Numbered from the stretch's first letter, positions 3,209 through 28,555 are shown. The stretch is 32,000 nucleotides of DNA from Opitutales bacterium (GCA_965219535.1 CBDCNV010000001.1:1140001-1172000); one strand, 5' to 3'. The notes: generated from the sequence alone by a model not told the origin. A program made the numbers and translations.

Positions 3209-3663
3209 GAGGAGTCTAAGGTCGAAGGTCAAAAGTCGAAAGCAGGAAACAAGAAATATTTTACAGGAAGAACGGGAAGGCCGGGGAGAAAGAAGGGGGG
3301 ATAGCCACAAAAGGCACAAAATGAAGATTAGAATATTTATTACATATTAATGGGAAAAAGCGGTAATATTGAACCGCAGAGGCGCAGAGATCGCAGAGAC
3401 AAAGACTGACAAGTGGAGTTGACAATTTACAACTGGGTGGGTGAAACGCGGTGATTGATCTCAATGTCATCCCCCCGCATTTGCGGGTGGGATTGACTAC
3501 GGCTTTCCCTAGCGCTTTTTTTAAATTGTGATTTAAAAAAACGTGTAGGAAACATCCGGCGTCCCGCGGTGGCGGGACTATTGTGATCAATCACCGCATT
3601 TCACCTTAGTTATTCTGGATCTACTATTGCATTCGACTTTAGACATTCGACTTTAGACTCCTC
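3209..3663. repeat. Foldback mosaic element R1 (455 bp) with nested inverted repeats
   Basis: The outer arms are gaggagtctaaggtcgaaggtcaaaagtcgaaag (3209-3242) and tcgactttagacattcgactttagactcctc (3633-3663). An inner 21-bp IR, ggtgaaacgcggtgattgatc (3440-3460) with gatcaatcaccgcatttcacc (3585-3605), has 1 mismatch. GC hairpins lie at 3471-3491 and 3561-3578. Confidence 0.85.
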
Positions 3664-3689
3664 AATTTCCCATCCGCGTTATCAGCGGT

Positions 3690-3905
3690 TTAATTTTCCC
3701 GATCTTCCCGAGCTTCCTGTAAAACCTCTTTCTTCTCTTGCCTGTCGGCCATAGCCTTGGCGACGGCTGGTGCTTTTGGAAGATCTCGCTGCGCTTTGGT
3801 AGTGCCTTTGAAAGATGTCGCCGCTGGCTCGGTAGTGCCTATCCTACCCGTAAAATCCCTCTTTCTTCTCTTGTGCTTTTTGTGCCTCTTGTGGCTATTC
3901 CTCAC
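3690..3905. repeat. Low-complexity mosaic segment R2 (its ORF is spurious)
   Basis: It has internal direct repeats gtaaaa(c)ctctttcttctcttg (3719-3740 and 3850-3873), an rc copy of the CGCCAAGGCTATGGC module (3741-3770), and a gccacaagaggcacaa word shared with 205-220 and 3301-3322. Confidence 0.75.
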
Positions 3906-3916
3906 TTAGAATAACT

Positions 3917-4156
3917 TCAGTTTTCGACCTTCGCGTCGCGAACATTCTTCGGTGGATCTTTCCACTGAAAGTGGGATTTTCCGGGTTCGTGGGTGGACAT
4001 ATTCCAGGTGGCATGGCCGCGCTTCACGGCTTCGTTCTGAAAGAAGGCCAAATCCTTTTTCGCCTCATCGAGAGCGAGGATTTTAAAGTAGTAAGCAATG
4101 ATCGCCGCTATTAATCCGATAAGACTCAAGAGCATCGCTAGAAATACAAAGGCCAT
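3917..4156 (-). CDS. Hypothetical small membrane-anchored protein (79 aa)
   Basis: There is an N-terminal TM helix MAFVFLAMLLSLIGLIAAIIAYYF followed by a non-repetitive soluble tail. The last codons (RDAKVEN*) overlap a cgaaggtcgaaaac word array. Confidence 0.55.
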   Translation of the reverse strand: MAFVFLAMLLSLIGLIAAIIAYYFKILALDEAKKDLAFFQNEAVKRGHATWNMSTHEPGKSHFQWKDPPKNVRDAKVEN

Positions 4157-4167
4157 GGGGGGAAACT

Positions 4168-4198
4168 AAATTTCTTGCTTAGTGTAAGCAAGAAATTT
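4168..4198. terminator. 13-bp perfect hairpin aaatttcttgctt-agtgt-aagcaagaaattt
   Basis: This is a perfect inverted repeat with a 5-nt loop between two minus-strand genes. A short T-rich stretch follows it on the minus strand. Confidence 0.4.
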
Positions 4199-4368
4199 GT
4201 CAAAAGGTCAAAAAGTCAAAATGTATTTGCGTATACGCGAAGATGAGTAAATGCGATAAAGGGTGAATGCGGAATTATACCGAATACAGGATGATCCTCG
4301 CGGTTGTCGATTATTCACATCTTCACATACTCGCTTGTTCCCGTATACCCATTTCCCCATAGACTGAC
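4199..4368. repeat. Foldback mosaic element R3 (degenerate right arm)
   Basis: The left arm is gtcaaaaggtcaaaaagtcaaaatg (4199-4223). The inner module gcgtatacgcgaagatgagtaaatgcgataaagggtgaatgcggaat resembles those of R6 and R14. The right half is decayed (catttccccatagactgac, 4350-4368). Confidence 0.6.
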
Positions 4369-4415
4369 AAATGATTAAGAAATTTCTAAACCAGAAATTT
4401 CTTCTTCATTTGTCA
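4365..4415 (-). terminator. Long hairpin containing the stop codon of the Ldh_2-type gene
   Basis: tgacaaatga (4365-4374) pairs with tcatttgtca (4406-4415), and aagaaatttct (4377-4387) pairs with agaaatttctt (4393-4403). That gives 10+11 bp with a 2x2 internal loop and a 5-nt loop. The stop codon is at 4375-4377. No U-tract follows. Confidence 0.4.
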
Positions 4416-5484
4416 TGGTCTTAAACCATTCAATGACTTCTTTATGTAGCGGTATGCCGTTTGCTCGACGGTCTTTTTCTTCTTCAGCTTCGAGCATGCC
4501 GGGGTAGATCACGCGTTCCTGGCCGGGGGCGGGTTTGGTTTCCCGGATCATCTTGAGCATGCGATCCATGTTATCTTTAAAGATATCGAGGTCAGTAAAG
4601 GCTTCGATGTCGTAGGCGACGAAATGGTGTTTATGCGCCATACCCGGTTCACCCGGGGATGCGAGCATGCTGGGAATGGAACCTGCCAATATTGAACCGA
4701 GGATTTCTGCTACCATCGCGAGTCCATATCCTTTATGTGAACCCTGTTCTCGCGTGCCGCCCAAGGGGAGTATGTGTACCGGTATGCCGTCCTCGTATTC
4801 AGGTACGTGAACGCGCTCCATTATGGGTACACCATCGGAATCGGCAATCCAGCCTGGTTCCAGCTTTGATCCTATTCTGCGGGCGAGCTCAATTTTATTT
4901 CCTGCGACCGAGCAGGTCGCGGCATCATAGAGAAAAGGCGCTTCATTGCGTGTGGGTGCGGCCAGGGCAATAGGATTTGTTCCAAGCAAGCCCGCTGAGG
5001 AAAAAGTTGGCACCACCTGTGTGCCGGCTGCAGTCGTAACTAAACCTACCATATTGTTTTGAACCGCCTGCATCGCGTGATGGCCGATAGCACCTGAATG
5101 ACCGCTGTTGTAAACGGACACCGCACCGATGCCGATCTGCTTAGCTTTGTCGATCGCTATCTGCATCGCGTGGCGACCGATGATGATGACTAAACCATTA
5201 TCCGCATTGATGTTCGCTGTCCCCGGTTTTTCACGCACAATCTCCCAATTGGACCTCGCGTTGATATGTTTATTTTTGTACTGATAGTGGTAGGCTCTCA
5301 GCATATTAGAGACGCCGTGGCTTTCCACTCCACGCAGGTCAGACGTTACGAGGGTGTCAGCGGCGATCGCGGCGTCTTCCGGAGTCTCACCCATCTTTTC
5401 AAAAAACTCCGTAACCGTTCGGCGGAGTGATTCCTCCGAAACAAGGACTTGATCATCTAGAGGGACTTTGAAGCGTTCTAGCAT
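4375..5484 (-). CDS. Ldh_2-family (malate/L-lactate/sulfolactate-type) NAD(P)H oxidoreductase
   Basis: The 369-aa product has DLRGVESHGVSNMLRAYH, SGHSGAIGHHAMQA and GSHKGYGLAMVAEILG blocks typical of the Ldh_2 fold family. Confidence 0.8.
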   Translation of the reverse strand: MLERFKVPLDDQVLVSEESLRRTVTEFFEKMGETPEDAAIAADTLVTSDLRGVESHGVSNMLRAYHYQYKNKHINARSNWEIVREKPGTANINADNGLVIIIGRHAMQIAIDKAKQIGIGAVSVYNSGHSGAIGHHAMQAVQNNMVGLVTTAAGTQVVPTFSSAGLLGTNPIALAAPTRNEAPFLYDAATCSVAGNKIELARRIGSKLEPGWIADSDGVPIMERVHVPEYEDGIPVHILPLGGTREQGSHKGYGLAMVAEILGSILAGSIPSMLASPGEPGMAHKHHFVAYDIEAFTDLDIFKDNMDRMLKMIRETKPAPGQERVIYPGMLEAEEEKDRRANGIPLHKEVIEWFKTMTNEEEISGLEIS

Positions 5485-5507
5485 AACTCAAAGAAGTTGA
5501 GTTATGC

Positions 5508-5588
5508 AGTCGAAGGTCAAATGTCAAAGGTCAAAAGTAATGTTTTTCAAAAAATCATGCTTTAGACTTTAGACCTTGGACTTTTGAC
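5508..5588. repeat. Foldback element R4 (short form)
   Basis: The left arm is agtcgaaggtcaaatgtcaaaggtcaaaagt (5508-5538) and the right arm is ctttagactttagaccttggacttttgac (5560-5588). Complementarity is about 75 percent in 7-nt register. Confidence 0.75.
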
Positions 5589-5616
5589 GACCAAAATGAG
5601 CTAGCTCATTTTGGTC
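5589..5616 (-). terminator. Perfect 28-bp palindrome centred on the stop codon of the epimerase gene
   Basis: In gaccaaaatgagct|agctcattttggtc the stop codon (cta, rc tag) lies at 5601-5603. The 5' arm in mRNA sense is the last 4 codons of the CDS. Confidence 0.4.
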
Positions 5617-6509
5617 TTGAGCCACCATTGATAGGTCATGGCCAGGCCGTCGTGGATGTTGTAGCGGGGTGTCCAGTCGAGATCGCGACGGGCTTTTTCG
5701 TTGGAGTATACGGAGCTGATTCCCCACCCAAAGGGGAATACGTCAGCCTCGAGTTCATCATAGCGTTTGGGATCGACGTGAATCACTTCCACTTCCTTGT
5801 TCATGACTTTACTCAGGGTTTGCAAATAACCGTTAACGGTTATCATCTCATTCGCACCGATGGTATAGATTTGGCCTGCTGCCTGTTTTTGACTTGGAAC
5901 AGCGGCAAACGCGGCGGCCAGATCATCGACGTGGATAAAGTGGAGGAGCCGTTGACCATCGCCGGGGATAATTAATTTACGTCCGTGAGTGATACGGGCA
6001 AAGAAAGTATGCTCGCGCTGTTTCAAGTTATTGTGCGGACCGTAGACATAGACCAGCCGCAGTGAGGTTGTCGGCAGCCCGAGCTCCGCGTGTACTTTTA
6101 AGAGAAGATCTTCACAGGCGATCTTGTCCCTGGCGTAGTCACTGGCTTCCGGTCTTCTGTCGAGGGCGGAATCTTCAAAGATCGGCCTGATTTCGGAGGG
6201 CGCGTAAACGGAAGTCGAGCTGCAGAAGACATAATTACCGATCTGACCATTGAGAATATTAATAACATCTTCAACGACGTTCGGGGTATAACCCGAAATG
6301 TCATAGACGACATCAAATGATTTACCCTTCAATGCCTTTTCGACCTGATTTCGGTCATCGCGATCGGCGCTGAGACGATTGACTTCATCCGGAAGCTGTG
6401 CCTCGCTCAAACCCCGGTTCAAAATAGTTACCTTATGTCCCTGTTTAATTAAATATTCAACAAGGTGTAACCCAATAAATTGGGTGCCGCCTAATACTAG
6501 TGATTCCAT
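5601..6509 (-). CDS. NAD-dependent epimerase/dehydratase family (extended SDR) protein
   Basis: The N-terminus MESLVLGGTQFIGLHLVEYL carries the Rossmann GxxGxxG motif. I place the start at ATG 6509. The track ORF starts at a TTG (6551) inside repeat arm R5, and those extra 14 aa are repeat-encoded. Confidence 0.8.
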   Translation of the reverse strand: MESLVLGGTQFIGLHLVEYLIKQGHKVTILNRGLSEAQLPDEVNRLSADRDDRNQVEKALKGKSFDVVYDISGYTPNVVEDVINILNGQIGNYVFCSSTSVYAPSEIRPIFEDSALDRRPEASDYARDKIACEDLLLKVHAELGLPTTSLRLVYVYGPHNNLKQREHTFFARITHGRKLIIPGDGQRLLHFIHVDDLAAAFAAVPSQKQAAGQIYTIGANEMITVNGYLQTLSKVMNKEVEVIHVDPKRYDELEADVFPFGWGISSVYSNEKARRDLDWTPRYNIHDGLAMTYQWWLKTKMS

Positions 6510-6537
6510 AAAACGTAACCAGAGGTAACGTTTTATG

Positions 6538-6638
6538 GAGTCGAAAGTCAAAGGTCAAAAGTCGAAGGAAATGATGCTAAAAGCTTTACCACTTTCACAC
6601 AATTCCGCATTCGACCTTTGACTTTCGACCTTCGACTC
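6538..6638. repeat. Foldback element R5 in a divergent intergenic region
   Basis: The left arm is gagtcgaaagtcaaaggtcaaaagtcgaagg (6538-6568) and the right arm is ttcgacctttgactttcgaccttcgactc (6610-6638). Confidence 0.85.
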
Positions 6639-6651
6639 TTTCAATAAAGTC

Positions 6652-7530
6652 ATGATCAAAAGTAAAAACGACTACCCTACGACAGAAGAACTGGTGGAAC
6701 AGGTGAGGGAGGTGGGCTATTGCCTGATTGAAGGTATTATACCTGAAGATAAATTAGAGCCGATTAAAAAGGAAATTTCGGACGCGGCTCATGCAAATTG
6801 CAGCGATTATGCGTCTGAAAACATAACGCACCTGTCCGGGACGATTAATTATACCCAAAGTTTTGCGGAGTATGTCGCACACCCGCGTATCCTGGCACTG
6901 GTGGACACATTTTTCGGCCCTCACGCGCGCGTCTCCTCGACGACGACGACGATCAATGAACCGGGAAATAAGCGCGGCATGTGGCATTCCGACTGGCCAT
7001 TCAACCAGAGGAACGCGGGTCACATTCCGGTACCCTATCCCGACTTGATGGTTCACATCACTTCGATCTGGATGATGTCCGCCTTCACTAAAGAGAATGG
7101 AGGGACTTTGATTCGGCCGAAAAGCCATAAGCTTAATTACAATCCGAGTGTGGACTATCCGGAAAATAAAGCAAAGACATCGGATAAAAAAGCGATGGCG
7201 GAAGGGTGGACGACGGTAGCCTGCGATCCTTTAGATGATGAAATAAATGCCACCGGTCCTGCCGGCAGTGTGCTCTTTTTTGACAGCCGCTTATGGCACG
7301 CCACGGCGCCCAACACTTCCACCGATCCTCGCGTCGCGCTGATTGTGCGTTACGCCCCCTGGTGGATAAATTTAAAATCCTGGAGACCCGGTTCGATTGA
7401 TAGAAAAATAATTTCCGAAGAGCCCGGCATTTTTGAAAACGTGCTCGCCCCACTACCCGTAGCCGTCTACGAAAAATTGCCCGAAGTAACGAAGCCACTG
7501 TTCAGGCATTGGGTTGAGGAAAACTCGTAG
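6652..7530 (+). CDS. Phytanoyl-CoA dioxygenase (PhyH) family Fe(II)/2-oxoglutarate oxygenase
   Basis: The 292-aa product has WHSDWPF (HxD-type metal site) and LWHATAPN (distal His), which are typical of PhyH. Confidence 0.75.
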   Translation: MIKSKNDYPTTEELVEQVREVGYCLIEGIIPEDKLEPIKKEISDAAHANCSDYASENITHLSGTINYTQSFAEYVAHPRILALVDTFFGPHARVSSTTTTINEPGNKRGMWHSDWPFNQRNAGHIPVPYPDLMVHITSIWMMSAFTKENGGTLIRPKSHKLNYNPSVDYPENKAKTSDKKAMAEGWTTVACDPLDDEINATGPAGSVLFFDSRLWHATAPNTSTDPRVALIVRYAPWWINLKSWRPGSIDRKIISEEPGIFENVLAPLPVAVYEKLPEVTKPLFRHWVEENS

Positions 7531-7538
7531 TTTTCCTC
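7516..7538 (+). terminator. 9-bp hairpin with the stop codon in the loop
   Basis: In gaggaaaac-tcgta-gttttcctc, TAG lies at 7528-7530. The 5' arm is the last codons (VEEN) of the CDS. Confidence 0.4.
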
Positions 7539-7723
7539 GTCGAATGTCTAAGGTCCAAAGTGAAAACGCGTGAAAGCGATAAAGCGTGAATGCGGATTAA
7601 TTCAGGGTGCAGGATCCAAGGAAATCTTCTTAATTTCCACATTTCCGCATCATCGCATATACTCATTCTCGCATATACGCATTTTCTTATTCCACCTTTG
7701 ACATTAGACCTTAGACTTTAGAC
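7539..7723. repeat. Foldback mosaic element R6 (full nested form)
   Basis: The heptamer arm gtcgaatgtctaaggtccaaagtg is at 7539-7562. The octamer array gtgaaaac|gcgtgaaa|gcgataaa|gcgtgaat|gcggatta is at 7560-7600. The loop contains ggtgcaggatccaaggaaatc. The octamer array cgcatcat|cgcatata|ctcattct|cgcatata|cgcatttt is at 7647-7686. The heptamer arm ccacctttgacattagaccttagactttagac is at 7692-7723. Confidence 0.9.
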
Positions 7724-7733
7724 AAATGAACCC

Positions 7734-8726
7734 ATGGGTTCATTAGTCGAAAAGCCTATCGGGCGAAGTGGTTTGAGGATGAGTGCGATTGCGCTGGGGG
7801 CGGGGACTTACGGGCGTGAGATCGACGAGGAGGCGTCCTGGAAGGTACTCGATTATGCGACGGAAAAAGGAATAACTTTTCACGACAACGCGGAGATGTA
7901 TGGCGGGGGCAATACCTACGAAAAACGCAAAGCGGATTATGGCACTACGGAAGTGCTGGAGGCATCGACCGAGATGTATTCGGGGGAGAAAATATTCTCA
8001 AGATGGATGAAAAATCGCGGTTGCCGTGATGATGTTGTCATCTGCACAAAAGTCAGCAGTGGGAACAGCGCGGAAAATATTAAGAAGCAGATGGCGGCCA
8101 GCCTCGAGCGGCTGGAAGTCGACTGTGTGGATGTTTACATGTTACATTCTCCCGATGACAGCGTGCCGATTGAAGAAACGATGGATGCGCTCAACGAGGA
8201 AGTAAAAGCCGGGCATACGAAGGTGATTGGGTGCAGCAATTTTTCGGGCGCGCAATTACGGGACGCGCTCGCGGTCAGCGCGAAGAAAGGTTACGCCCGT
8301 TTTGAAATTACCGAGCCCCGCTATAACCTCGCGGATAGAAAATCGGAGACGGATGATTTTCCCATTTGCCGGGAGGAAGAGATAACGGTTATGCCCTACA
8401 GTCCATTAGCCGCGGGATTTCTCACCGGTAAATATACACCGGACCGTTCACAGTTTCCCAAGGGCGCGCGCTTTGATCTTTCACCCGGCCACGCCGACAT
8501 TTACTTCAACGATCATAATTTTCGGGTGGTCGAACACTTGCGCAAAAAAGCCGAGGAGATGGGACTACCCATGGTGCGTCTCGCTATGGCTTGGGTGATG
8601 ACTAATCCCGATGTCACCGCCACCCTCATCGGCGCCCGAACAACCGCGCATATCGACAACGCTCTCCTCGCCGCAGAAATGGGACTCGATCCCGCATTAC
8701 GCAAAGAAATGAGTAGATGGGAATAG
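7734..8726 (+). CDS. Aldo/keto reductase family oxidoreductase
   Basis: The 330-aa product has IGRSGLRMSAIALG, DNAEMYG, DVYMLHSPD and GCSNF blocks typical of AKRs. Confidence 0.85.
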   Translation: MGSLVEKPIGRSGLRMSAIALGAGTYGREIDEEASWKVLDYATEKGITFHDNAEMYGGGNTYEKRKADYGTTEVLEASTEMYSGEKIFSRWMKNRGCRDDVVICTKVSSGNSAENIKKQMAASLERLEVDCVDVYMLHSPDDSVPIEETMDALNEEVKAGHTKVIGCSNFSGAQLRDALAVSAKKGYARFEITEPRYNLADRKSETDDFPICREEEITVMPYSPLAAGFLTGKYTPDRSQFPKGARFDLSPGHADIYFNDHNFRVVEHLRKKAEEMGLPMVRLAMAWVMTNPDVTATLIGARTTAHIDNALLAAEMGLDPALRKEMSRWE

Positions 8727-9303
8727 GAGTCGAAAGTCGAAGGTCTAAGGTCGAATGCGGAATCTAATAAATCTGAGAAAGATTAGGAATTAGTTTCTAT
8801 TTTGGTATCTGATTTATCTTGTTTAATACGGCGCATAAGTGCAGCGATGCCTTTCGAGATATTTCTACTAGCTTCTCTTAAGTTTACTGCATCGTTTTCT
8901 ACTATATAATTAAGATCTTCAGCAATATAGAGCATATTTCTTAATTCTCCACAGGAGCCTTTTGCGATGCTAAGAAAACGATAGAACTCAGCGTCTCCTT
9001 TTCTTTCATAACCCTCCGAAATATTATTCATTACTGATACACTTGATCTTTGGATTTGATCTTTAAAGCCATAGTCTTTTGACGCCGGTGTTGACCCACC
9101 AAACGATTTATAAATAGTCGTGACTAAAGTTCTTGCTTCTTGCCAGATTCTCAGATCTTCGAAGGATTTTACTGGGTTCATAATATGATAAATGTTGATG
9201 TTGAATTAATGAGATCTATATAGAATTTAATTCGGTAAAAAATACACTAAACTTAATAGTGATTATTTCGCCTTCGACTTTAGACCTTCGACTTTCGACA
9301 TTC
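8727..9303. repeat. Foldback element R7 carrying a cargo gene
   Basis: The left arm is gagtcgaaagtcgaaggtctaaggtcgaatgcggaat (8727-8763) and the right arm is ttcgccttcgactttagaccttcgactttcgacattc (9267-9303). A ~27-bp core is complementary with 1 mismatch. The arms enclose ORF 8783-9181. Confidence 0.9.
8783..9181 (-). CDS. Four-helix-bundle protein (23S rRNA intervening-sequence protein family)
   Basis: The 132-aa product has FEDLRIWQEA, SVMNNISEGYERKGDAEFYRFLSIAKGSCGELRNMLYIAEDL, the signature layout of this family. Confidence 0.85.
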   Translation of the reverse strand: MNPVKSFEDLRIWQEARTLVTTIYKSFGGSTPASKDYGFKDQIQRSSVSVMNNISEGYERKGDAEFYRFLSIAKGSCGELRNMLYIAEDLNYIVENDAVNLREASRNISKGIAALMRRIKQDKSDTKIETNS

Positions 9304-9325
9304 AAATCGCTCACGCGATTTGAAT
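9300..9325 (-). terminator. 11-bp perfect hairpin with the stop codon in the loop
   Basis: In attcaaatcgc-tcac-gcgatttgaat the stop (tca, rc tga) lies at 9311-9313. The arm at 9315-9325 is the last codons (IQIA) of the ADH gene. Confidence 0.4.
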
Positions 9326-10297
9326 TACAGCGCTCCCATTAAACTTTCCATCGCGTAGAGCATTGAGTGCATCATTGGTTTTATACAGGGGAAAAACGGA
9401 TACTTCCGTTTGAACGGGAATGCTTGGAGCCAGTTTTAAAAAATCTTCTCCATCCTTGCGCGTGAGATTGGCAACTGACCGGATCTGCCGTTCTTCCCAT
9501 AAATCTTTATAGGGAAAGGAGGGGATGTCGCTCATATGGATACCTGCACAAACGACAATCCCGCCTTTGCCCACCGCTTTCAGTGCAGCCGGTACTAAAG
9601 CGCCGATCGGAGCAAAAATGATGGCGGCGTCGAGTTTGCACGGTGCTTTATCTTCTGAACACCCCGCCCAGACGGCACCGAGTTTTCGAGCAAAGTCCTG
9701 GCCGGTGCTATCACCCCGTCGCGTAAACGCATAAATTTCTTTTCCCTCAAATACCGCGACTTGTGCGATAATATGCGCTGCTGCACCAAAGCCGTAAAAA
9801 CCAATTTTTTTTGCATTACCTGTCATTCGGTAGGCGCGATAGCCAATTAATCCGGCACAGAGCAGGGGGGCAACCTGCAAGTCGGAATAGTCATCAGCTA
9901 GGGGAAAACAAAAATCTTCTCTTGCCACGGTGTATTCAGCGTAACCGCCATCCTTTTGATAACCGGTAAAGGTCGGGTCATCGCAGAGGTTTTCACGGCC
10001 CTCGTCACAATAAGGGCATGACCCACAAGTTCCACCCAGCCATGGCACGCCTACACGCGTTCCCTTATCAAATCGTGTTGCGCTATCTCCCCGTTCTTCT
10101 ACCGTGCCGACAATCTGATGGCCCAGCACTAAAGGAAGTTTTGGTTCCATTAATTCTCCATCAACAATATGCAAATCAGTCCGGCACACCCCGCAGACCC
10201 TTACTTTGAGCAGCACTTCCTTGTCACGGGGTCTAGGGACGGGCAGCTCTATTAATTTCAATGGACTTCCCAATTTTTGTAGGGACATCGCTTGCAT
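9311..10297 (-). CDS. Zinc-dependent alcohol dehydrogenase (MDR) family protein
   Basis: The 328-aa product has GVCRTDLHIVDGE, GHQIVGTV, the structural-zinc Cys cluster CGSCPYCDEGRENLC, and a GFGAAAH Rossmann motif. Confidence 0.85.
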   Translation of the reverse strand: MQAMSLQKLGSPLKLIELPVPRPRDKEVLLKVRVCGVCRTDLHIVDGELMEPKLPLVLGHQIVGTVEERGDSATRFDKGTRVGVPWLGGTCGSCPYCDEGRENLCDDPTFTGYQKDGGYAEYTVAREDFCFPLADDYSDLQVAPLLCAGLIGYRAYRMTGNAKKIGFYGFGAAAHIIAQVAVFEGKEIYAFTRRGDSTGQDFARKLGAVWAGCSEDKAPCKLDAAIIFAPIGALVPAALKAVGKGGIVVCAGIHMSDIPSFPYKDLWEERQIRSVANLTRKDGEDFLKLAPSIPVQTEVSVFPLYKTNDALNALRDGKFNGSAVIQIA

Positions 10298-10316
10298 GAT
10301 TTGAATTGTAAGAGCA

Positions 10317-10591
10317 GAAGGTCGAAAGTCAAAAGTCGAAAGGGTTGAAAACCGGTAGATTTTCAGTGTTAGGTGTTAAGTAAGAATGGGGGTAAATGCG
10401 GCATGAGTGTATGTCATTATGCGTGTATGTGGATGGTCACTTGGGTCTTATTCGGCTATGGCATTAGCGACGGATGATTGTAGCTGAGTAGATGTAATTA
10501 TCCTTAAATAATCCGCATTATCGCATAATCGCATTCACGCGTATTCATAATCTCGCATTCTACCTTTGACATTAGACCTTAGACTTTAGAC
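10317..10591. repeat. Foldback mosaic element R8 (full nested form)
   Basis: The left arm is gaaggtcgaaagtcaaaagtcgaaaggg (10317-10344). The right octamer array is cgcattat|cgcataat|cgcattca|cgcgtatt|cataatct|cgcattct. The right heptamer arm is tacctttgacattagaccttagactttagac (10561-10591). It contains a degenerate rc copy of the GGCTATGGC module. Confidence 0.85.
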
Positions 10592-10601
10592 AAAAGAACC
10601 C

Positions 10602-11726
10602 ATGGATTCTATTGTCGAAAAGCCTCTATTAATCATCGATGGTCACTTGGATATGGGGTTTAATGCGCTTTTTAATCAACGTGATCTTACACAGTCGATC
10701 CAGGTTTTGCGTGAGCGCGAGGACTCTCTAAAGAACAAACTGGGACCCTATGAAACCGATCCGGGAACGGTTACGGTTTCACTTCCGGAATTAAGGCGAG
10801 GTTGTGTTGGCATCATGCTGGCTACGATAATGGTACGGGTCCAAGTGCCGTGGCCAGGAAGACCGAATTGCCATAATGCGGTGCGCACGCAGCCGACAGC
10901 CTATGCGCGCGGCCAATCCCATCTCGCTTATTACCAGGCTCTGGAAAAGGAAGGAGAAGTATCCTGGATTAAAACACTCGAAGACTTGGACTCGAGTGTA
11001 GCCGCCTGGGAAAACCCCACCCCGGATACTCCGGTCGGTCTAATCCTTTCGATGGAAAGCGCCGATCCCATCCTCGGGCCCGACCAGGTAGCTCAATGGT
11101 GGGAGGATGGACTGCGCGCGGTCGGCATTACTCATTTCGGAGCGAATTCTTACGGGCACGGGACCGGTACGCCGGGAGGACTTTACCCAACCGCATACCC
11201 TCTTTTGGATGCCTTTGCGGATACCAATATGATCATCGATCTCACGCATGCCGCTGATACCGCGTTCTGGCAAATTCTCGATTATTGGGAGGGACCGGTA
11301 CACGCCAGCCATTGTAACTGTCGCGCGCTCGTGCCCGGTCAACGCCATCTCAGTGACGAGATGATAAAAGCGCTCTGCGAACGCGGTGGTGTCATGGGCA
11401 TGGTATTCGCTGAGTCCATGTTGAGCCCCCAGTGGGATTGGGATGATCCGAGTACGCATTACACCAAAGCCACGCGACCGATGAAAGCGGTCGTGGAACA
11501 TGTCGACCACATCTGTCAACTCACGGGTAATACGGATCATGTAGCGATCGGCACGGATCTCGACGGTGGATTTGGGCGAGAAATTGCACCTATTGACATG
11601 GATACGGTCAACGACCTGCAAAAATTTTTAAACATACTACGTGATCGGGGATACAGCGAAGAGGATGTAGAAAAAATAGCCCATGGAAATTTGTTACAAC
11701 TCTTCCGCAACGCATGGAGCAAATAA
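10602..11726 (+). CDS. Peptidase M19 (membrane/renal dipeptidase) family protein, paralogue 1
   Basis: The 374-aa product has IDGHLD (HxD), SMESAD, IIDLTHAAD, ASHCNCRAL and IGTDLDGGFG blocks collinear with M19 metal-ligand positions. Confidence 0.8.
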   Translation: MDSIVEKPLLIIDGHLDMGFNALFNQRDLTQSIQVLREREDSLKNKLGPYETDPGTVTVSLPELRRGCVGIMLATIMVRVQVPWPGRPNCHNAVRTQPTAYARGQSHLAYYQALEKEGEVSWIKTLEDLDSSVAAWENPTPDTPVGLILSMESADPILGPDQVAQWWEDGLRAVGITHFGANSYGHGTGTPGGLYPTAYPLLDAFADTNMIIDLTHAADTAFWQILDYWEGPVHASHCNCRALVPGQRHLSDEMIKALCERGGVMGMVFAESMLSPQWDWDDPSTHYTKATRPMKAVVEHVDHICQLTGNTDHVAIGTDLDGGFGREIAPIDMDTVNDLQKFLNILRDRGYSEEDVEKIAHGNLLQLFRNAWSK

Positions 11727-11728
11727 TA

Positions 11729-12829
11729 ATGGCCGATAAACCCATGCTCATTGTAGACAGCCACCTCGACCTGGCCTTTAACGCGATCCAGATTAATCGG
11801 GACATCACACAACAGGCGGCCGTTGTTCGCACCCATGATCATCAATCCACTCTCTATCGTTTTGGAAGTTCGACTGTTACTTTTCCCGAGCTGAGAAAAG
11901 GAAAAGTAGGAATCGTGTTCGGGACGGTTATGTCTCGAATCGATCCCACCGATTGGCTGGGGCGCACCGGGGGGATGTATTCACAAGCGCAATGTTACGG
12001 AGTAGGTCATGGACATTACTCTTTTTACAAGGCGATGGAACGGGAGGGGATACTTAAATTTATCCAAAATGCCGAAGATCTCGATGCGATGGTCGAGGCC
12101 TGGGAAAATCCCTCGGCTGATACTCCTTTTGGTTTGGTTCTCGCGATGGAAAGCGCGGATCTTATCTTAGACCCTGACGAGGTCTCCAAATGGTACGACC
12201 GCGGATTACGTATCGTCAGTATTTCTCATTACGGCAACAACACCTATGCCCAAGGTACTGATACCGAGGGCGGCCTCTTACCCAAGGGGAAGCCTCTTCT
12301 AGACGCATTGAAAGCAAGTGGTATCATTGTAGATATGACTCATACAACAGATCAGAGTTTTTGGGAAATATTAGACTATTATGATGGGCCGGTTGCCGCT
12401 TCCCATCACAATTGCCGGGCCCTCGTCCCGGGTCAGCGACAGTTAACCGATGATATGATTAAGGCAATTGTCGAACGCAATGGCGTGATTGGAGCCGCAT
12501 TTGATGTATGGATGCTCGATCCCGATTGGACAAGGGGTGTTCGCGGGTGTGATCAAACGACGAAAGCTACGCTTGAAACGGTAGTCGATCATATCGACCA
12601 CATTGTCCAACTAGTGGGCAGCGCTAATCACTGTGGAATCGGTACCGATCTCGACGGGGGTTACGGGCAGGAGCAATCGCCCCGCGATCTCAATACGATT
12701 GCCGACCTGCAAAAACTCCCCAGCATTTTTAAAAAGCGCGGCTATAATGAAGAAGATATATCCAAATTTCTTTCAAAAAATTGGATTAATTTTTTGAAAG
12801 AAACTTGGAGTCAAAAGTCGAAGGTCTAA
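11729..12829 (+). CDS. Peptidase M19 family protein, paralogue 2
   Basis: It is collinear with paralogue 1 (roughly half of positions identical by eye). I prefer ATG 11729 (MADKPMLIVDSHLD), which aligns with KPLLIIDGHLD, over the track start at 11714. The last codons, QKSKV*, are encoded by repeat arm R9. Confidence 0.8.
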   Translation: MADKPMLIVDSHLDLAFNAIQINRDITQQAAVVRTHDHQSTLYRFGSSTVTFPELRKGKVGIVFGTVMSRIDPTDWLGRTGGMYSQAQCYGVGHGHYSFYKAMEREGILKFIQNAEDLDAMVEAWENPSADTPFGLVLAMESADLILDPDEVSKWYDRGLRIVSISHYGNNTYAQGTDTEGGLLPKGKPLLDALKASGIIVDMTHTTDQSFWEILDYYDGPVAASHHNCRALVPGQRQLTDDMIKAIVERNGVIGAAFDVWMLDPDWTRGVRGCDQTTKATLETVVDHIDHIVQLVGSANHCGIGTDLDGGYGQEQSPRDLNTIADLQKLPSIFKKRGYNEEDISKFLSKNWINFLKETWSQKSKV

Positions 12830-13002
12830 AGTCGAAAGTGGAAACGTGTGAATGCGGATTATTTCAAGGTGCAGGTTCCAAGGAAATCATGGTAGTTACC
12901 ACATTTACGCATCAACGCTTACACGCATGTTCGCGTAAGAGGATGTCGGGCTCTACCCTCGGTACGCATTACCTTTGACTTTCGACCTTCGACCTTCGAC
13001 TC
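12808..13002. repeat. Foldback mosaic element R9
   Basis: The left arm is gagtcaaaagtcgaaggtctaaagtcgaaagtg (12808-12840). The loop sequence ggtgcaggttccaaggaaatc matches R6 at 20 of 21 positions. The module gaggatgtcgggctctaccctcggtacgc is at 12939-12967. The right arm is acctttgactttcgaccttcgaccttcgactc (12971-13002). Confidence 0.9.
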
Positions 13003-21750: not shown

Positions 21751-21776
21751 GGTCAAAAGGTCAAAAAGCGGAAAGG
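21751..21776. repeat. Solo heptamer/octamer word array upstream of the ferredoxin gene
   Basis: The array is ggtcaaaaggtcaaaaagcggaaagg. I found no clear partner arm. The surrounding 21780-22100 holds decayed modules (ggtggaacgcggtg at 21934-21947, the CGCCAAGGCTATGGC module at 21948-21981). Confidence 0.7.
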
Positions 21777-22106
21777 CGAGTAACCTTACTTATGTCCCCC
21801 TGCTGGGGGCTAATAGCCTAGTTCACTAATATGATTTATATTTATCTTCGTTTTCGACCACGCTTGCCACATCGTAGACTACTGCGAAGACGGGTCTGCC
21901 TCTTAGTCCATCCAGTTATTAATAGAATAGATAGGTGGAACGCGGTGCCTGACGGCCTTCGCCAAGGCTATGGCGGTCAGGACTTCGATGAGCTCAGCTG
22001 AATCGCAGCCCGCTCCACCATGGATTGCAAGATAATCTATATTTGCCAGGGACAAAGACCAATACGACGAATCCATACGCTCTTACTTTACACCGTACTG
22101 TTACAT

Positions 22107-22265
22107 TTATTTATAACGTTTAATTAAAAAATATTTTAAACTATCAAATTGCTCTTTAGTTAAACGGCCCGCGAAATCTGCAGCATCGAGTTTTTTTACC
22201 ACGCTTTTGGGTAAAGTTATTTTCAATCTGGCGAGAATTTTATTTTGCGTTTCGTAATTTGCCTC
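22107..22265 (-). pseudogene. C-terminal half of a small secreted-protein gene split by IS copy 2
   Basis: It reads (E)ANYETQNKILARLKITLPKSVVKKLDAADFAGRLTKEQFDSLKYFLIKRYK*. It joins in frame to 23611-23827 once the IS and one GAGG duplication are removed. Confidence 0.7.
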
Positions 22266-22292
22266 TGATCGGACCCCGTTTTTCGTACCAAT

Positions 22293-23258
22293 TTAAGTGA
22301 GAGAGTTACCGGGTGTTAATGGTTTTAGGATTGATGTATATGAGAGATCTTGGCGAAGTGAGGGCGTAGCCCGAACGCGGCCAAGATCGGAAAGGAATCT
22401 GACAAACTCTTGTGGGCTTTTGAAGCCTAAACGACTGTGGGGATGTTCATGGTTATAGGTCTGACGCCATTGTTCGATTACCACTTGCGCTTCAGCCACG
22501 CTGAGTAACACTTCACGGTTCAAACACTCATCGCGTAAGCGGTTGTGAAACGACTCGATGAAACCGTTTTGCCAGGGACTGCCCGGATCGATATAGATCG
22601 CCTTTATGTTATTACCGGACAACCACTGCTGCACTTGATGAGCAATGAACTCACTGCCGTTGTCACTACGGATATAGCTGGGAGGTCCCTCCTCTTCAAT
22701 GGCCTCGCTAAGCACAGAGAGGACATCGGTTGAGGTGAGTTGACGAGCGACCCGGATATCCAGGCATTTACGCGTATATGTCTTCGCTTCGCTTGAGTGT
22801 CGTCGCTTTCAGCTCCTCGGTACATCGATTAGAGTCATCATCTTTAATGGACCGCCGTTGTCTGTACGATCATGGACAAAGTCCCAGGACCAAACGTGAT
22901 TGCGACCCTTTGCTTTAGTAGGTGACCCCGTAGAGACTCCTTGACGGTGTCTGCCCTTTTTCGGGGGCTTTACCTGCAGCCCTTCTGAACGTCGTACCGC
23001 CTGGACAAACTTCCTGCTTGTTGTCCAGCCTTCCTTTACCAGCAAGGCACGGATGCGCCGGTAACCGTAGCGGGGATGTTTCCAGGACAAGCTCACAATC
23101 CGCTCGACCAACCGCTGAGCTTTCTCACTGGCCTGTTTGGGCCGGTAACTGAACGTTGACCAACTCAGGCTGAGATAAGCACAAGCCCTCCGCAACGAGC
23201 ACAACCCTTTCTCAGCCGCAGCTTTTACTACTCGTTTCTTCTGCTTTGGGCTCACCAT
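22293..23258 (-). pseudogene. OrfB of IS copy 2, with the same in-frame TGA (22809-22811)
   Basis: Track ORFs 22293-22715 and 22809-23258 are identical to those of copy 1. Confidence 0.75.
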
Positions 23259-23332
23259 TTTTTTGACAGCGTTTCCTCCATTACCTGATTCTTGAGCATT
23301 TGATCTGCGAGCAGCTTCTTCAGCTCGGTATG

Positions 23333-23545
23333 TCAGGCCTTCTCGCTTGCGCTCGTGAATTCTTTTTCCAGCTCTTTAAATCGCTTCGCATCGGCAAGTT
23401 CTAAATTGCCATATTTTTTACGCCAGCGATAGAAAGTCTGTTCGCTCAGGTTGTTTCCACGGCAGATTTCCTGTACCGTTTTACCGGTATCGGCTTGCCG
23501 CAATATTGTTATAATCTGTTCTGTTGTGTATCTTTTTCTTTTCAT
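23333..23545 (-). CDS. OrfA (HTH) of IS copy 2
   Basis: Its 70-aa product is identical to that of 693-905. Confidence 0.75.
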   Translation of the reverse strand: MKRKRYTTEQIITILRQADTGKTVQEICRGNNLSEQTFYRWRKKYGNLELADAKRFKELEKEFTSASEKA

Positions 23546-23610
23546 TGAGGTTATCTGTTTATCCCGATAACCTCTCTCTGTAAATGATACGATTTTTGGG
23601 GGTCACTCCA

Positions 23611-23827
23611 CCTCATTAATAGGATCTGCCGGTAAATCAATCTTCCCCAAATATATATCTTTACCAAGATTGAAACGGGTCCCATCGATATTGTTTTTAG
23701 TAGCCGATGCCGACGAGATGGAACTATGATCTGTGGTGCGTGGCGGTGCCGAATAATCGCCAGAACCCAAGGCGGTAAGAACAGGTAAGAGAATACAACA
23801 TGTCAAAAGACTGCTAATATATTTCAT
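23611..23827 (-). pseudogene. N-terminal half of the small secreted-protein gene split by IS copy 2
   Basis: The signal peptide MKYISSLLTCCILLPVLTALG is followed by ..GKDIYLGKIDLPADPINE. The frame runs into the IS end and stops at a TGA within the IS. Confidence 0.7.
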
Positions 23828-25314: not shown

Positions 25315-25351
25315 ATGGGGACACGCCAGTTTGGGGTATTGAGTAATTTAA

Positions 25352-25444
25352 CTCTTCGTCTTCGTCTTCGTCTGCCTCTTCGTCCATCGTATCGTAAGGA
25401 GTAAAAAAGCGGACGAAGACGAAGAGTCAGACGAAGACGAAGAT
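25352..25444. repeat. Foldback element R12 built from GACGAAG words
   Basis: The left arm is ctcttcgtcttcgtcttcgtctgcctcttcgtcc (25352-25385) and the right arm is ggacgaagacgaagagtcagacgaagacgaagat (25411-25444). The loop is 25 nt. Confidence 0.9.
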
Positions 25445-25532
25445 TATTTAGGTGTAAATACGAGTTAAGCCGCTTTTTCTTGATCTATACATAGGGTGTT
25501 TATAGGGTCTTTCTCGATCATTTATTTTGCTG

Positions 25533-26000: not shown

Positions 26001-26015
26001 TTTTATTTTATAAAG

Positions 26016-26296
26016 CTTCGTCTACGTCTGATTCGCTGTAATAGGATTGAAGATATTTTTTAGGATTGGAGGGACGCACTCCGTTGCGTCCGCTATTATA
26101 TGAAGATTACGGCCACGATCAGCCGACGCCAAGGCTATGGCCGACAGGCAGGAGCGTGGCCCTCCAGACGGGCTGTTCCTTAGCACGCTTCTTTAATTAA
26201 GACAAATCTAACGCGGTAGGGACACCGCGTTCCACCTTGATTTTGTATTATATAGATGAATCGGACGAAGACGAAGAGGCAGACGAAGACGAAGAT
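26016..26296. repeat. Foldback mosaic element R13 (GACGAAG type)
   Basis: The left arm is cttcgtctacgtctgattcg (26016-26035). The right arm is gaatcggacgaagacgaagaggcagacgaagacgaagat (26258-26296) and is nearly identical to the R12 right arm. Inside are the hairpin ggacgca-ctccgt-tgcgtcc (26072-26091), the CGCCAAGGCTATGGC module (26121-26148) and caccgcgttccacc (26223-26236). Confidence 0.85.
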
Positions 26297-26549
26297 TACT
26301 AATTAACTCACAGTTTACTCCCTAGACTTCGACACCCATTTAATTGGACGAAAATCAATAGTAAATCCACTCTTCCAAGCATCCATTCTTCTGTTGGTCC
26401 TTCATTCCATTTTACTATTGTGTAAAACGAGCGTCTTAAAATATAAAGCTCACGTAATGCCTTTGCTTCCAGTTATAATGAATTGTTGTAAAGATTGGCA
26501 TTATACACGTATTTAAAAAGCAAATATAAATTAAAATTAAAAGATCCCC

Positions 26550-27281
26550 ATGAGTGAATTAGAAGGTAAAATCGCCATTGTTACAGGAGCCGGTACTGGT
26601 ATTGGTAAAGGTATTTCTCGAGCGTTAGCAGGTGCGGGCGCAAAGCTTGTGCTCGCTTCGCGTAATGAAGATAATCTGCAAAAGACCGCAGATGAACTAA
26701 AAGAATATAATTCGGAAGTTAAAGTAATTCCGACTGATATTACTAAAGAAGAAGCAGTCATCGCCTTATTCAAACAGACGATGGATAGTTTTGGGCGTCT
26801 GGATATCCTGATAAATAATTCGGGTATAAGTGTAGGTAAATCGATAGATGAATTATCACTTCGGGAATGGAGTCAGGTCGTCGATTTGAACCTCACAGGA
26901 ACGTTTCTCTGTAGTCGGGAAGCGATGAAAATCATGAAAGGGCAGGGAGGTGGAAGGATAGTCAATATTGGCAGCATTTCGGGCCAGATGCCTCGTCTGA
27001 ATTCAGCTCCTTATGTCGCGACCAAATTTGGAATTTCGGGATTAACGAAGGCTACCGCCCTCGAAGGGCGTGATTTTGGGGTTGCCGCCAGTTGTGTGCA
27101 TCCAGGCAATGTTGCGATCGAGCGGCGAGTGGCGAGTGATTCTGTCCAGGATCAGGAACCCATGATGTCTGTTGATGATATTGCAAAGGTTGTGCTCACC
27201 GCCGTTACTTTACCTCCCCATGTAAATATGTATGAGTGTATCACGCTACCCGTAGGGCAGCTGTACTTAGGGAGAGGATGA
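26550..27281 (+). CDS. SDR family oxidoreductase
   Basis: The 243-aa product has TGAGTGIGKG, NNSG and YVATKFG (YxxxK). Confidence 0.85.
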   Translation: MSELEGKIAIVTGAGTGIGKGISRALAGAGAKLVLASRNEDNLQKTADELKEYNSEVKVIPTDITKEEAVIALFKQTMDSFGRLDILINNSGISVGKSIDELSLREWSQVVDLNLTGTFLCSREAMKIMKGQGGGRIVNIGSISGQMPRLNSAPYVATKFGISGLTKATALEGRDFGVAASCVHPGNVAIERRVASDSVQDQEPMMSVDDIAKVVLTAVTLPPHVNMYECITLPVGQLYLGRG

Positions 27282-27287
27282 TTGAAT

Positions 27288-27521
27288 GGTCAAAAAGTCA
27301 AAAGGTCAAAAAGTCAAAAAGGGAATTGGGAAATGTGTGTATGCGATAAAGCGTGCATGCGGAATGCTTAGTGATATAGGATACTTTTAGCGATTACCGC
27401 TTTTGGGAGATGTCGTCCCACTACGGCGGGACTCGGTCCGCTTCACCACATAATCGCATGTGAGGATGTCGGACTTCGACCTCGGTACGCGTATACGCAT
27501 ATACTTTTCGACATTTTGACC
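27288..27521. repeat. Foldback mosaic element R14 (GTCAAAAG type)
   Basis: The left arm is ggtcaaaaagtcaaaaggtcaaaaagtcaaaaaggg (27288-27323). The inner module is gtatgcgataaagcgtgcatgcggaat. The module gaggatgtcggacttcgacctcggtacgc is at 27462-27490. The right arm is cttttcgacattttgacc (27504-27521). Confidence 0.85.
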
Positions 27522-27528
27522 TATAAAC

Positions 27529-28263
27529 TTAATTATTAGTCCTGATTAACCTGACGTTCTGCTTTAAAAACCAGTCATAAAATCGCTGAGGGTGAGTAAG
27601 TGCTGGTGGCACGGCACTACGTTGGATGTAGCCATTATTTACTGATATTCCACCCCACTTTTTAATAAGATCCTCGCGCACACGATAAGCTCTATCGCGC
27701 CACTCCCCAATCGGGATGCAGCTTTCCAAGCGCCCTGATTCATTCTTATCTGCTCTCACGACAATCTCTGCTGCCAGCGGATTTGCTCTACGGGTATGAG
27801 CATTCTGTTTCCATAGCTTCTTCTGTACTTCTCCTACAGAAACAACTTCTTTAACTACATAAAGACCTATAATAGCATATATTAGAGTATGCGTACACGC
27901 TTTAATTGGTCTCAAACTTGAATAAAAGGCAAGAACATCACCAGATTTCATACGGGACATATTAACGCCGCGTCTGGCACCATTATCACCATAAGTCAGT
28001 TCATTGAAATCCGGATCCAAGTGCATTTTTTTATTTAAGAGAGTATCTGGAAAATTAAGATCTCGCGCTAAATCCAATTTATATTTTTCACAAAACTGTT
28101 TTAATACTGGCAAGGTCTCGGTATAACAACGTTCCAGATGCTTATGGCTCGGCATAACTTCTGGTATGGGAAGGTAAACAAATTCCCTCGATTGCGGATC
28201 TATCGGCGCATTCCAATTACCAAAAGCGCTATCAATTCCAACCCTTACGAGCAGTGCTTTCAT
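27529..28263 (-). CDS. Hypothetical 244-aa protein (orphan; no family assigned with confidence)
   Basis: It is a clean ORF of normal composition, MKALLVRVGIDSAFGNWNAPIDP..EFVYLPIPE...GDVLAFYSSL...LIYAIIGLYVV. The N-terminal pattern faintly recalls uncharacterised nucleotide-modification-associated proteins, but that is memory only and is not verified. Confidence 0.6.
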   Translation of the reverse strand: MKALLVRVGIDSAFGNWNAPIDPQSREFVYLPIPEVMPSHKHLERCYTETLPVLKQFCEKYKLDLARDLNFPDTLLNKKMHLDPDFNELTYGDNGARRGVNMSRMKSGDVLAFYSSLRPIKACTHTLIYAIIGLYVVKEVVSVGEVQKKLWKQNAHTRRANPLAAEIVVRADKNESGRLESCIPIGEWRDRAYRVREDLIKKWGGISVNNGYIQRSAVPPALTHPQRFYDWFLKQNVRLIRTNN

Positions 28264-28268
28264 TTATT

Positions 28269-28555
28269 AGTCAAAAGGTCAAAAGGCATAGACTAGTGAA
28301 CAGTGAACGGTGAACAGTAAACAGTGATAGAGTCAAATCGATTGCTGATTTGCGAATTATACTAGCGGTTGTAAATTTTTTTCCCTGAACCCTGAACCCT
28401 GAACCCTGAACCCTGAACCCTGAACCCTGAACCCTGAACCCTAAACCGAGGGCGAAGCCCGACATCCTTAAAAAGAGTATAAGAGGAGCATCTTCCACAG
28501 ATCTCTGGTCTTCTCCTTTTGACCTTTTGACCTTTTGACTTTTTGACCTTTTGAC
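28269..28555. repeat. Foldback mosaic element R15 with several different word arrays
   Basis: The left arm is agtcaaaaggtcaaaagg (28269-28286). Five AGTGAAC-type units lie at 28295-28330, and the CCCTGAA array at 28383-28445. An rc copy of the gaggatgtcgg..cctcgg module is at 28446-28467. The right arm is ccttttgaccttttgaccttttgactttttgaccttttgac (28515-28555). Confidence 0.9.
28383..28445. repeat. Tandem heptamer array (CCCTGAA)x8 plus one CCCTAAA unit
   Basis: Eight perfect units start at 28383. The ninth unit is ccctaaa (28439-28445). Confidence 0.95.

Follow-up and report, generated by a model that had tools for sequence, protein, structure and literature searches.

We analysed a 32,000-nt stretch of an Opitutales bacterium genome (GCA_965219535.1, CBDCNV010000001.1:1140001-1172000; hereafter the window) in which short tandem arrays of degenerate 7-nt words, of the type RGTCNAA, lie between genes. 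Our favoured reading, to which we assign a probability of roughly 0.6, is that these arrays are the arms of palindromic hairpin elements akin to the intervening sequences (IVSs) of 23S rRNA that carry a PF05635 gene, here placed between protein-coding genes of an uncultured member of the Verrucomicrobiota. Among the observations behind this reading, word arrays flank 50 of 60 PF05635 loci, and tandem heptamers likewise belong to the stem region of the Coxiella IVS.

The window contains 90 copies of RGTCNAA where 34 ± 5 are expected, a count attained in none of 100 shuffles, and 18 arrays with at least three GTCNAA or TTNGAC units, of which 300 dinucleotide-preserving simulations yielded none. 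The claim of an earlier note on this DNA that the tandem words are non-random is thereby borne out. Although 74% of the region is coding, 516 of the 536 array bases (96%) are intergenic. They occupy 13 intergenic regions, one fewer than the minimum of 14 counted earlier, comprising 12 of the 18 spacers of at least 60 nt and the short spacer between the aldo-keto reductase (AKR) gene and the PF05635 gene. Apart from a weak two-unit array at 21752, they form two clusters, one at 3.2-14.1 kb and one at 27.3-28.6 kb, and they fall into two registers: a period of 7 (GTCNAAR) at 3.2-14.1 kb, and a period of 8 (GTCAAAAR) at 4199, 21752 and 27.3-28.6 kb. That arrays bracket almost every gene, as the earlier note had it, is true of two stretches of the window only, as the response-regulator/kinase operon (14.1-21.2 kb) and four further spacers lack GTCNAA arrays. 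Its further statement that every intergenic spacer is a foldback holds for the array-bearing spacers but was too sweeping, as six of the 18 spacers of at least 60 nt lack a GTCNAA array; three of the six lie within the response-regulator/kinase operon, and two of the six carry a different word family, CTTCGT/ACGAAG. No tRNA or rRNA gene was found in the window, and an Rfam search of the window gave no match at the gathering threshold and only chance miRNA-like hairpin matches at E ≤ 1.

Every element in the window reads, on the plus strand, (GTCNAAR)n, a loop, and then (YTTNGAC)n (Table 1). The arms are direct tandem words with no internal palindrome beyond TCGA. Pairing energies between them run from -12 to -50 kcal/mol, whereas composition-matched shuffles give -6 to -13 kcal/mol. 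Stems comprise 13-34 pairs (18-34 in 27 of 28 elements), and loops extend from 26 nt, in what we call 'empty' hairpins, to 517 nt; many cores are nested palindromes of other words, e.g. GCGTGAAW or GTGTTAG/GTTTTAG. Across the window and five syntenic relatives, 64 of 81 arrays (79%) consist of exactly four units (27-30 bp), a mode that fits a length requirement, e.g. two to three helical turns, and misfits free slippage.

Element 6 carries the link to IVSs within the window: its loop holds the PF05635 gene, and the region folds into a 27-bp stem with 7 further pairs enclosing that gene (z = -6.4). In its solved homologue, the PF05635 protein is a pentamer. The analogy with rRNA processing stems drawn in the earlier note was apt in this respect, and the outcome that the note named as removing its claim of novelty, arms identified as the ends of a known MITE or IS family, is realised in part, the known type being the PF05635 IVS cassette. 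PF05635 cassettes also lie between arrays in three relatives, L124 (two copies, one of them inverted between its arms relative to the window), L129 and L130, and an array-flanked cassette is present in a Pyrinomonadaceae genome. In an unbiased test on PF05635 loci from metagenome contigs, 60 of which had both flanks available, the flanking inverted repeat scored above the best shuffled control at 50. The arms at these loci are almost always purine-rich word arrays with a period of 7-9, mostly AAAGTY words (e.g. GTCNAA or GTTNAA), and they stand directly at the ORF borders; none of 20 loci tested was in an rRNA context. Cassettes of PF05635 (intervening-sequence protein) and GxxExxY genes with word-array flanks are found inside leuA-leuC-leuD and ABC-transporter operons; in one ABC-transporter operon (L139), GTCNAAR arms surround a PF05635 gene between two ABC-permease genes.

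Element anatomy is thus tripartite: the 5' arm is built from about four GTCNAAR or GTCAAAAR units, the 3' arm from about four YTTNGAC units, and a loop or core separates them. One copy in the window keeps the PF05635 gene; the others lack an ORF and are 'empty' hairpins or carry interchangeable non-coding cores. On transcription in either direction the arms would form a double-stranded stem of 24-34 bp, a predicted RNase III substrate. Cutting after transcription would allow elements to live in rRNA, in operons and in tight spacers without a transcription block, and the tandem-word build would permit units to be gained or lost by slippage with pairing kept in a shifted register. RNase III stems of this kind are familiar from phage T7 early mRNA and from rRNA operons, where they are cut post-transcriptionally while transcription continues. 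The putative cleavage of stems in an mRNA context, and whatever benefit it may bring, we infer by analogy. Three observations speak for transparent stems, which transcription passes and whose action, if any, comes afterwards: related cassettes occur within leu and ABC-transporter operons, IVSs occur within rRNA operons, and terminators are not enriched in the window. If they are efficient RNase III sites, they would constitute natural, portable and bidirectional mRNA-processing modules.

This transparency bears on the possibility that the elements are bidirectional intrinsic terminators or insulators marking transcription-unit boundaries. Most other genes are separated by elements, whereas the operon at 14.1-21.2 kb has none inside it, and TCTTT(TT) follows several right arms. 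However, termination would be lethal or polar in the leu, ABC-transporter and rRNA operons that harbour related cassettes, and elements also occupy divergent promoter regions (6540-6636). Loops of 26-517 nt, i.e. tens to hundreds of nucleotides, compare with the 3-8 nt of an intrinsic terminator, a proper U-tract is lacking, and a promoter and terminator scan of the window found 15 terminator sites where 13 ± 4 are expected. We regard a role in termination as very improbable.

The earlier note had also described a fixed polarity of the arrays relative to transcription. The orientation rule is true at all the genes it listed, but the link to transcription fails, as the palindromic layout yields the rule automatically. 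An element is laid out as its own reverse complement, with the same arm order on both strands, and consequently its flanking genes see TTNGAC on their 5' side and GTCNAA on their 3' side whether they are tandem, convergent or divergent. To the right of an element, a plus-strand gene meets TTNGAC with its 5' end and a minus-strand gene meets GTCNAA with its 3' end; the left side is the mirror image. The apparent gene-relative polarity is the geometry of a palindrome between genes, without a link to transcription, and any intergenic palindromic element will give the same impression, which serves as a methodological warning. The sole real regularity is the intrinsic arm order, GTCNAA arm first and TTNGAC arm second. 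Across phyla, in a set of 86 GTCNAAR arrays each taken with 800 nt on both sides, the inverted partner lay downstream in 22 cases and upstream in none. A second word-array hairpin family in the window, (CTTCGT)n…(ACGAAG)n at 25347-25443 and 26015-26295, flanks an acetyltransferase gene. It has its pyrimidine-rich arm first, the reverse of the purine/pyrimidine order of the GTCNAA family; arm order is therefore a property of each family, not of genes.

The dynamics of the elements were read from six syntenic relatives. Where neighbouring proteins are 90-97% identical, arrays hold the same intergenic sites as in the window, and arm type (7-nt or 8-nt), unit number and core vary; a relative with 66% AKR identity has no array in 21 kb. 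At one persistent site, the spacer between the epimerase and PhyH genes (element 4), 7-mer arms of identical sequence are present in the window, in L129 and in L130. The loop that they enclose is empty in the window and filled by two different inserts in L129 and L130, and L123 has 8-mer arms there. Hetero-arm elements, with a 7-mer left and an 8-mer right arm or the reverse, also exist, and the right arm of the PF05635 cassette shifts from four units to two in L129. The right arm of element 2 is intact at the orthologous site in L123, L125 and L129, and element 9 has orthologous copies in L123 and L129, its core being 92.5% identical to that of L123. Near-identical cores are also dispersed. 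The 188-nt core at 27319-27506 is 96% identical to the core of the spacer between the AKR and dipeptidase genes of L123, and the core of element 8 (12837-12973) is 97.6% identical to the spacer between u79 and Ldh_2 of L123, both at non-orthologous sites; something is copied between sites.

We rejected the idea that arrays serve as end points of gene loss or drive cassette turnover. The alcohol dehydrogenase (ADH) loss in L129 is a plain microhomology deletion (window 9349-10359), and its end points lie outside arrays, so the claim was dropped. In L125, positions 10950-11040 of the spacer between AKR and dipeptidase retain a remnant of about 70 nt of the 5' part of the ADH gene, recognised by eye against window ~10110-10180, which suggests that ADH was probably ancestral and then lost independently in L125, L123 and L129. 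Separately, L124 519-5176 contains three diverged tandem Ldh_2 paralogues, 75-81% identical to the window protein, each bounded by nearly identical 8-mer arrays and interleaved with two PF05635 cassettes.

Several observations weigh against an IVS-like origin of the arrays. The association with PF05635 is strong from the side of the gene and weak from the side of the array: in the window, one of about 12 elements has the ORF and about 11 do not, and among 120 cross-phylum GTCNAAR arrays a phmmer search placed a PF05635 ORF near only three. About three quarters of the cross-phylum arrays lack an inverted partner within 800 nt. Neither a target-site duplication, by inspection of filled and altered sites, nor a mobilising enzyme for the elements was identified. 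At the RNA level, pairing energies gave no specific support: arms showed no partner-specific co-evolution, all being interchangeable in this comparison, and no strand asymmetry of the sort expected from selection (mean -31.7 versus -32.0 kcal/mol). RNase III cleavage of the window elements is proposed from analogy with rRNA IVSs only.

Given the rarity of PF05635 among the window elements and cross-phylum arrays, the arrays could be an independent class of hairpin-forming simple sequence repeats (SSRs) like the STRR (short tandemly repeated repetitive) sequences of cyanobacteria, arising and kept by replication slippage and gene conversion and not the termini of a mobile element, into whose loops PF05635 cassettes and other small modules insert secondarily. 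A landing pad of this kind agrees with the identical arms whose loops differ in content between the window, L129 and L130, with the free combination of cores and arms, hetero-arm elements included, and with the nested palindromes within loops; an over-representation of heptameric SSRs, with polymerase slippage proposed as their origin, is on record (PMC4692102). However, slippage alone predicts a broad range of lengths, whereas four-fifths of the arrays have exactly four units, and the arrays stand right at PF05635 ORF borders in 50 of 60 independent loci. Moreover, the rRNA site of an IVS has no pre-existing array, yet the IVS carries its own heptamer stem (PMC4990558). We consider secondary insertion into pre-existing repeats rather unlikely.

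The copying of cores between sites would also be expected of transposons acting at the level of DNA, similar to miniature inverted-repeat transposable elements (MITEs) or to REPINs, the hairpin-forming pairs of repetitive extragenic palindromic (REP) sequences. The arrays would then be terminal inverted repeats, or multimeric recognition sites of a transposase that acts on hairpin DNA, e.g. of the HUH/Y1 or RAYT type, and RNA structure would be irrelevant. Pairing that is symmetric and without strand bias agrees with this, a Y1_Tnp gene lies 1.5 kb from a PF05635 cassette in L138, and REPINs offer a documented precedent (PMC3116915). In the window, however, the only transposase candidates are IS3-family genes, target-site duplications were not seen, the arms are tandem direct words as opposed to individually palindromic REPs, and they stay put while cores change. 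This explanation is improbable in our estimation. Least credible of all is pairing across the gene, with arms upstream and downstream forming an rRNA-like processing stem around the mRNA: the earlier note was right that arms could pair across spacer or gene (-31.7 and -30.4 kcal/mol), and an RNA whose 5' end lies within a spacer would have its upstream arm free, but non-neighbouring arms pair just as well (-30.3 kcal/mol; no significant difference), so that complementarity generic to any two arms is uninformative, kinetics should favour local partners at distances of 26-500 nt over those ~1 kb away, and the homologous IVS stem encloses the element, not flanking RNA (PMC4990558).

The interpretation of the arrays as stems of IVS-like elements can be set against the systems that they most resemble. 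The 23S rRNA IVSs of Coxiella burnetii, Leptospira, Brucella and Xanthomonas share with the window elements a stem of ~28 bp formed by terminal inverted repeats around a loop, tandem heptamers in the stem region whose copy number varies between close strains, and, for one window copy (8783-9181 in element 6), a PF05635 four-helix-bundle ORF in that loop; both are regarded as selfish. In C. burnetii, the terminal stem is 28 bp long and is cut by RNase III mid-stem, and three to four tandem heptamers, varying in number between strains, lie beside the S23p (PF05635) ORF (PMC4990558). The window elements differ in lying between or abutting protein genes, not in helix 25 or 45 of 23S rRNA; about 11 of the 12 copies are ORF-less, the words are GTCNAAR as opposed to GACAGAT, and RNase III excision, which is demonstrated for the rRNA IVS, is a prediction by homology of form for the window.

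Heptamer arrays as such have been described before, and the strong claim of novelty, that no described bacterial family has this word-array construction, consequently fails. Cyanobacterial STRRs are 7-bp repeats that form hairpins and are without known function (PMC2670836). The GGGAATC heptameric SSRs of Xanthomonas, which have counterparts in Nostoc, are heterogeneous, mostly of four units and often in inverted-repeat pairs, and related species carry them at shared intergenic positions, where they vary in length and sequence (PMC4692102). The window arrays share all of these traits: heterogeneous tandem 7-nt units, intergenic placement, a mode of about four units, inverted-repeat hairpins, and persistence at the same sites in related genomes with variation of length and sequence. 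They differ in having an 8-nt register as well, in their host, which belongs to the Verrucomicrobiota and not to the (heterocystous) cyanobacteria of the original STRR definition or to Xanthomonas, and in the link to PF05635 and the interchangeable cores, which are absent from the STRR and SSR descriptions compared (PMC2670836, PMC4692102). What is new here is best filed as mostly ORF-less IVS-like hairpins with STRR-like stems that densely colonise Verrucomicrobiota intergenic DNA.

Other known systems are more distant. REPs and RAYT-mobilised REPINs (PMC3116915) likewise place two inverted short repeats around a spacer to give a long hairpin, and are intergenic, abundant and non-autonomous, but REP units are imperfect palindromes with a conserved 5' tetranucleotide whereas the window arms are direct tandem words; no RAYT (Y1/HUH) transposase was present among the window ORFs submitted to Pfam. 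A MITE would share the arms resembling terminal inverted repeats and the dispersed near-identical cores; inspection of filled and altered sites found no target-site duplication. Intercistronic RNase III hairpins of phage T7 and rRNA, long stems between cistrons, provide the proposed mode of action; they are unique evolved sequences that are cut, whereas the window holds a dispersed word-array family for which cutting is presumed from resemblance. Integron attC sites are imperfect palindromes at gene-cassette borders with 7-bp core sites, but consist of single R and L core boxes with extrahelical bases compared with four tandem words per window arm. Integron cassettes are co-oriented beside intI, whereas gene orientations in the window are mixed, and a Pfam search of window ORFs revealed no integrase or tyrosine recombinase.

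Four tandem GTCNAAR units were found at 120 or more genome loci. Hosts among the matches listed include Cyanobacteria, Verrucomicrobiota, Planctomycetota, Bacteroidota and Acidobacteriota, as well as Gemmatimonadota, Myxococcota, Deinococcota, Chloroflexota and candidate-phyla bacteria. Arrays of other heptamers are frequent neighbours, and GTCAAAA-type arrays also occur in Nostoc, Stigonema, Scytonema and others. The window lies on a metagenome contig (ENA ERZ25072670, 1.35 Mb), and its fused solute-binding/permease protein has named homologues exclusively from Verrucomicrobiae or Opitutaceae. A broader proposal, which we put forward tentatively and think possible at best, is that STRR-type word-array hairpins and PF05635/GxxExxY cassettes form one pan-bacterial selfish class, which host RNase III would render harmless by excising it from any transcript (rRNA, operon mRNA or intergenic read-through) and whose ORF-less miniatures could saturate the intergenic DNA of some lineages. 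If true, a single selfish class would account both for the surplus of heptameric repeats that has long been noticed between bacterial genes and for the evolution, in flanking genes, of covarying hairpins at start and stop codons that would stabilise processed mRNAs. An IVS-like nature of the arrays would give a testable identity to a repeat type known since 1990 (STRR, heptameric SSRs) and over-represented between the genes of many bacteria, and would tie it to RNase III-processed rRNA IVSs and to the very common PF05635 'four helix bundle' genes.

Gene-specific perfect palindromes often lie between an arm and the adjacent gene and have as their centre its start codon (CATG) or its stop codon (CTAG or GTA). 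One palindrome arm is coding and consists of the initial or final codons, the other repeats these codons in inverted form outside the gene, and the two covary among six relatives; by comparison, stems of at least 10 bp occur at only 0.6% of random positions. At the PhyH stop, the arm pairs among relatives are GAAAAC/GTTTTC, GAAAACTC/GAGTTTTC, GAAACCTC/GAGGTTTC and GAAACCCC/GGGGTTTC. At the AKR start, the arms read AATGAACC, AATGTCCC or AAGAATCC, and the mirror matches each; in per-sequence folds, by which the start-codon hairpins were compared, the centre of the palindrome moves by half a base between relatives. These palindromes may be mRNA-end stabilisers that were selected once processing sites were in place; alternatively, repeated DNA events at element borders may have left them behind as snap-back copying footprints. 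The left arm of element 8 itself provides the last six codons and stop (GTCTAA; 12810-12829) of the upstream second dipeptidase gene (…W S Q K S K V *; GTCAAAAGTCGAAGGTCTAA). Of note for annotation, start, C-terminal and stop codons of ordinary enzymes here come from repeat sequence. A repeat shared by the AKR gene (7734) and the dipeptidase gene (10602), with 84% identity over 115 nt, takes in the initial ~9 codons of each.

Table 1. Hairpin elements, codon-centred palindromes and other repeat features. Coordinates refer to the window unless a relative is named.
Feature	Coordinates	Strand	Description
Element 1	3214-3658		391-nt core between left arm 3214-3240 and right arm 3632-3658 (4 units each); arm pairing -37.7 kcal/mol
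Element 2	4168-4362		Left arm 4199-4220 with 8-nt period, next to boundary hairpin 4168-4198; GCG-word sub-arrays in core; right arm decayed (…catagactgac)
Element 3	5509-5588		'Empty' hairpin; arms 5509-5535 and 5562-5588, 26-nt loop
Element 4	6540-6636		'Empty' hairpin between divergent genes; arms 6540-6566 and 6610-6636, 43-nt loop
Element 5	7539-7723		138-nt core, holding an inner word palindrome GCGTGAAW/…CGCAT, between arms 7539-7558 (3 units) and 7697-7723 (4 units)
Element 6, ORF-bearing	8729-9299		Arms 8729-8755 and 9273-9299; PF05635 gene in loop; arm pairing -47.3 kcal/mol
'23S rRNA intervening-sequence protein' / four-helix-bundle gene	8783-9181	-	132 aa; PF05635, Pfam E = 1.2e-34; NCBIfam TIGR02436; inside element 6
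Element 7	10321-10591		Arms 10321-10340 (3 units) and 10565-10591 (4 units), 224-nt core
Element 8	12810-13000		Arms 12810-12836 and 12974-13000
Element 9, nested	13849-14077		Single inner words at 13884 and 13953, enclosed by outer arms 13849-13861 and 14051-14077
Weak element	21752-21859		Two 8-nt units 21752-21765, single inverted word 21853-21859
8-nt-period element	27289-27520		Arms 27289-27318 and 27507-27520, 188-nt core
8-nt-period element	28270-28555		Arms 28270-28283 and 28518-28555 (5 units)
Perfect 28-bp palindrome (14-bp stem)	5589-5616		Centred on epimerase stop (CTAG), abuts right arm of element 3; also in relatives
Hairpin	7516-7538		Last codons and stop of PhyH gene with inverted copy; arms covary among six relatives
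20-bp palindrome	7725-7744		Centred on CATG of AKR start; upstream arm tracks codon 2-4 changes in relatives
11-bp-stem hairpin	9300-9325		ADH stop codon, directly after right arm of element 6; nested palindrome enlarges L130 copy
Hairpin	5482-5506		Includes start codon of minus-strand Ldh_2 gene, abuts left arm of element 3
15-bp-arm hairpin	6506-6538		Includes start codon of minus-strand epimerase gene, abuts left arm of element 4
Further boundary palindromes	4168-4198, 12762-12808		
GCCAAGGCTATGGC copies	181-194, 229-242, 3748-3761(-), 21961-21974, 26128-26141		Looser copy at ~13815
GGAGGGCCACACTCCGTTGTGGCC(CTCC)-type module	27405-27430		Also in L129r, L125 and L130r cores (e.g. L129r 4428-4769, 7559-7851)

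Some further repeats and insertions accompany the elements. The core of the 28270-28555 element includes unpaired heptamer arrays, GTGAACA x4 (28296-28322) and CCCTGAA x9 ending in CCCTAAA (28383-28444), and the neighbouring Nmad3 (nucleotide-modification-associated domain 3) gene at 27529-28263 has 8-nt-period arrays on both sides. A small hairpin module, GGAGGGCCACACTCCGTTGTGGCC(CTCC) with the variant GTCGTCCCACTACGGCGGGAC, recurs in many cores; the Rfam search of the window, which covers the variant copy and not the relatives' cores, gave no match for it. A dispersed motif, GCCAAGGCTATGGC, lies within a module of ~25 nt (cgyCGCCAAGGCTATGGCcgGCAG), occurs five times in the window where 0.17 copies are expected, and is also present in cores of the relatives.

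GxxExxY genes parallel the PF05635 cassettes: in L134 and L142 they lie between leuC and leuD with inverted TTTGCGT-type word arrays as flanks. The window has a small GxxExxY/PDDEXK_3 gene (TIGR04256) at 327-635, truncated at 635 by an insertion sequence (IS). Two inverted copies of a frameshifted IS3-family element (~617-1975 and 22262-23619; 99.5-99.8% identical) bracket the 20-kb array-rich segment, and a second, intact IS3-family transposase gene (371 aa, 1942-3057) abuts the left copy. The relatives do not have these IS3-family copies at this place.

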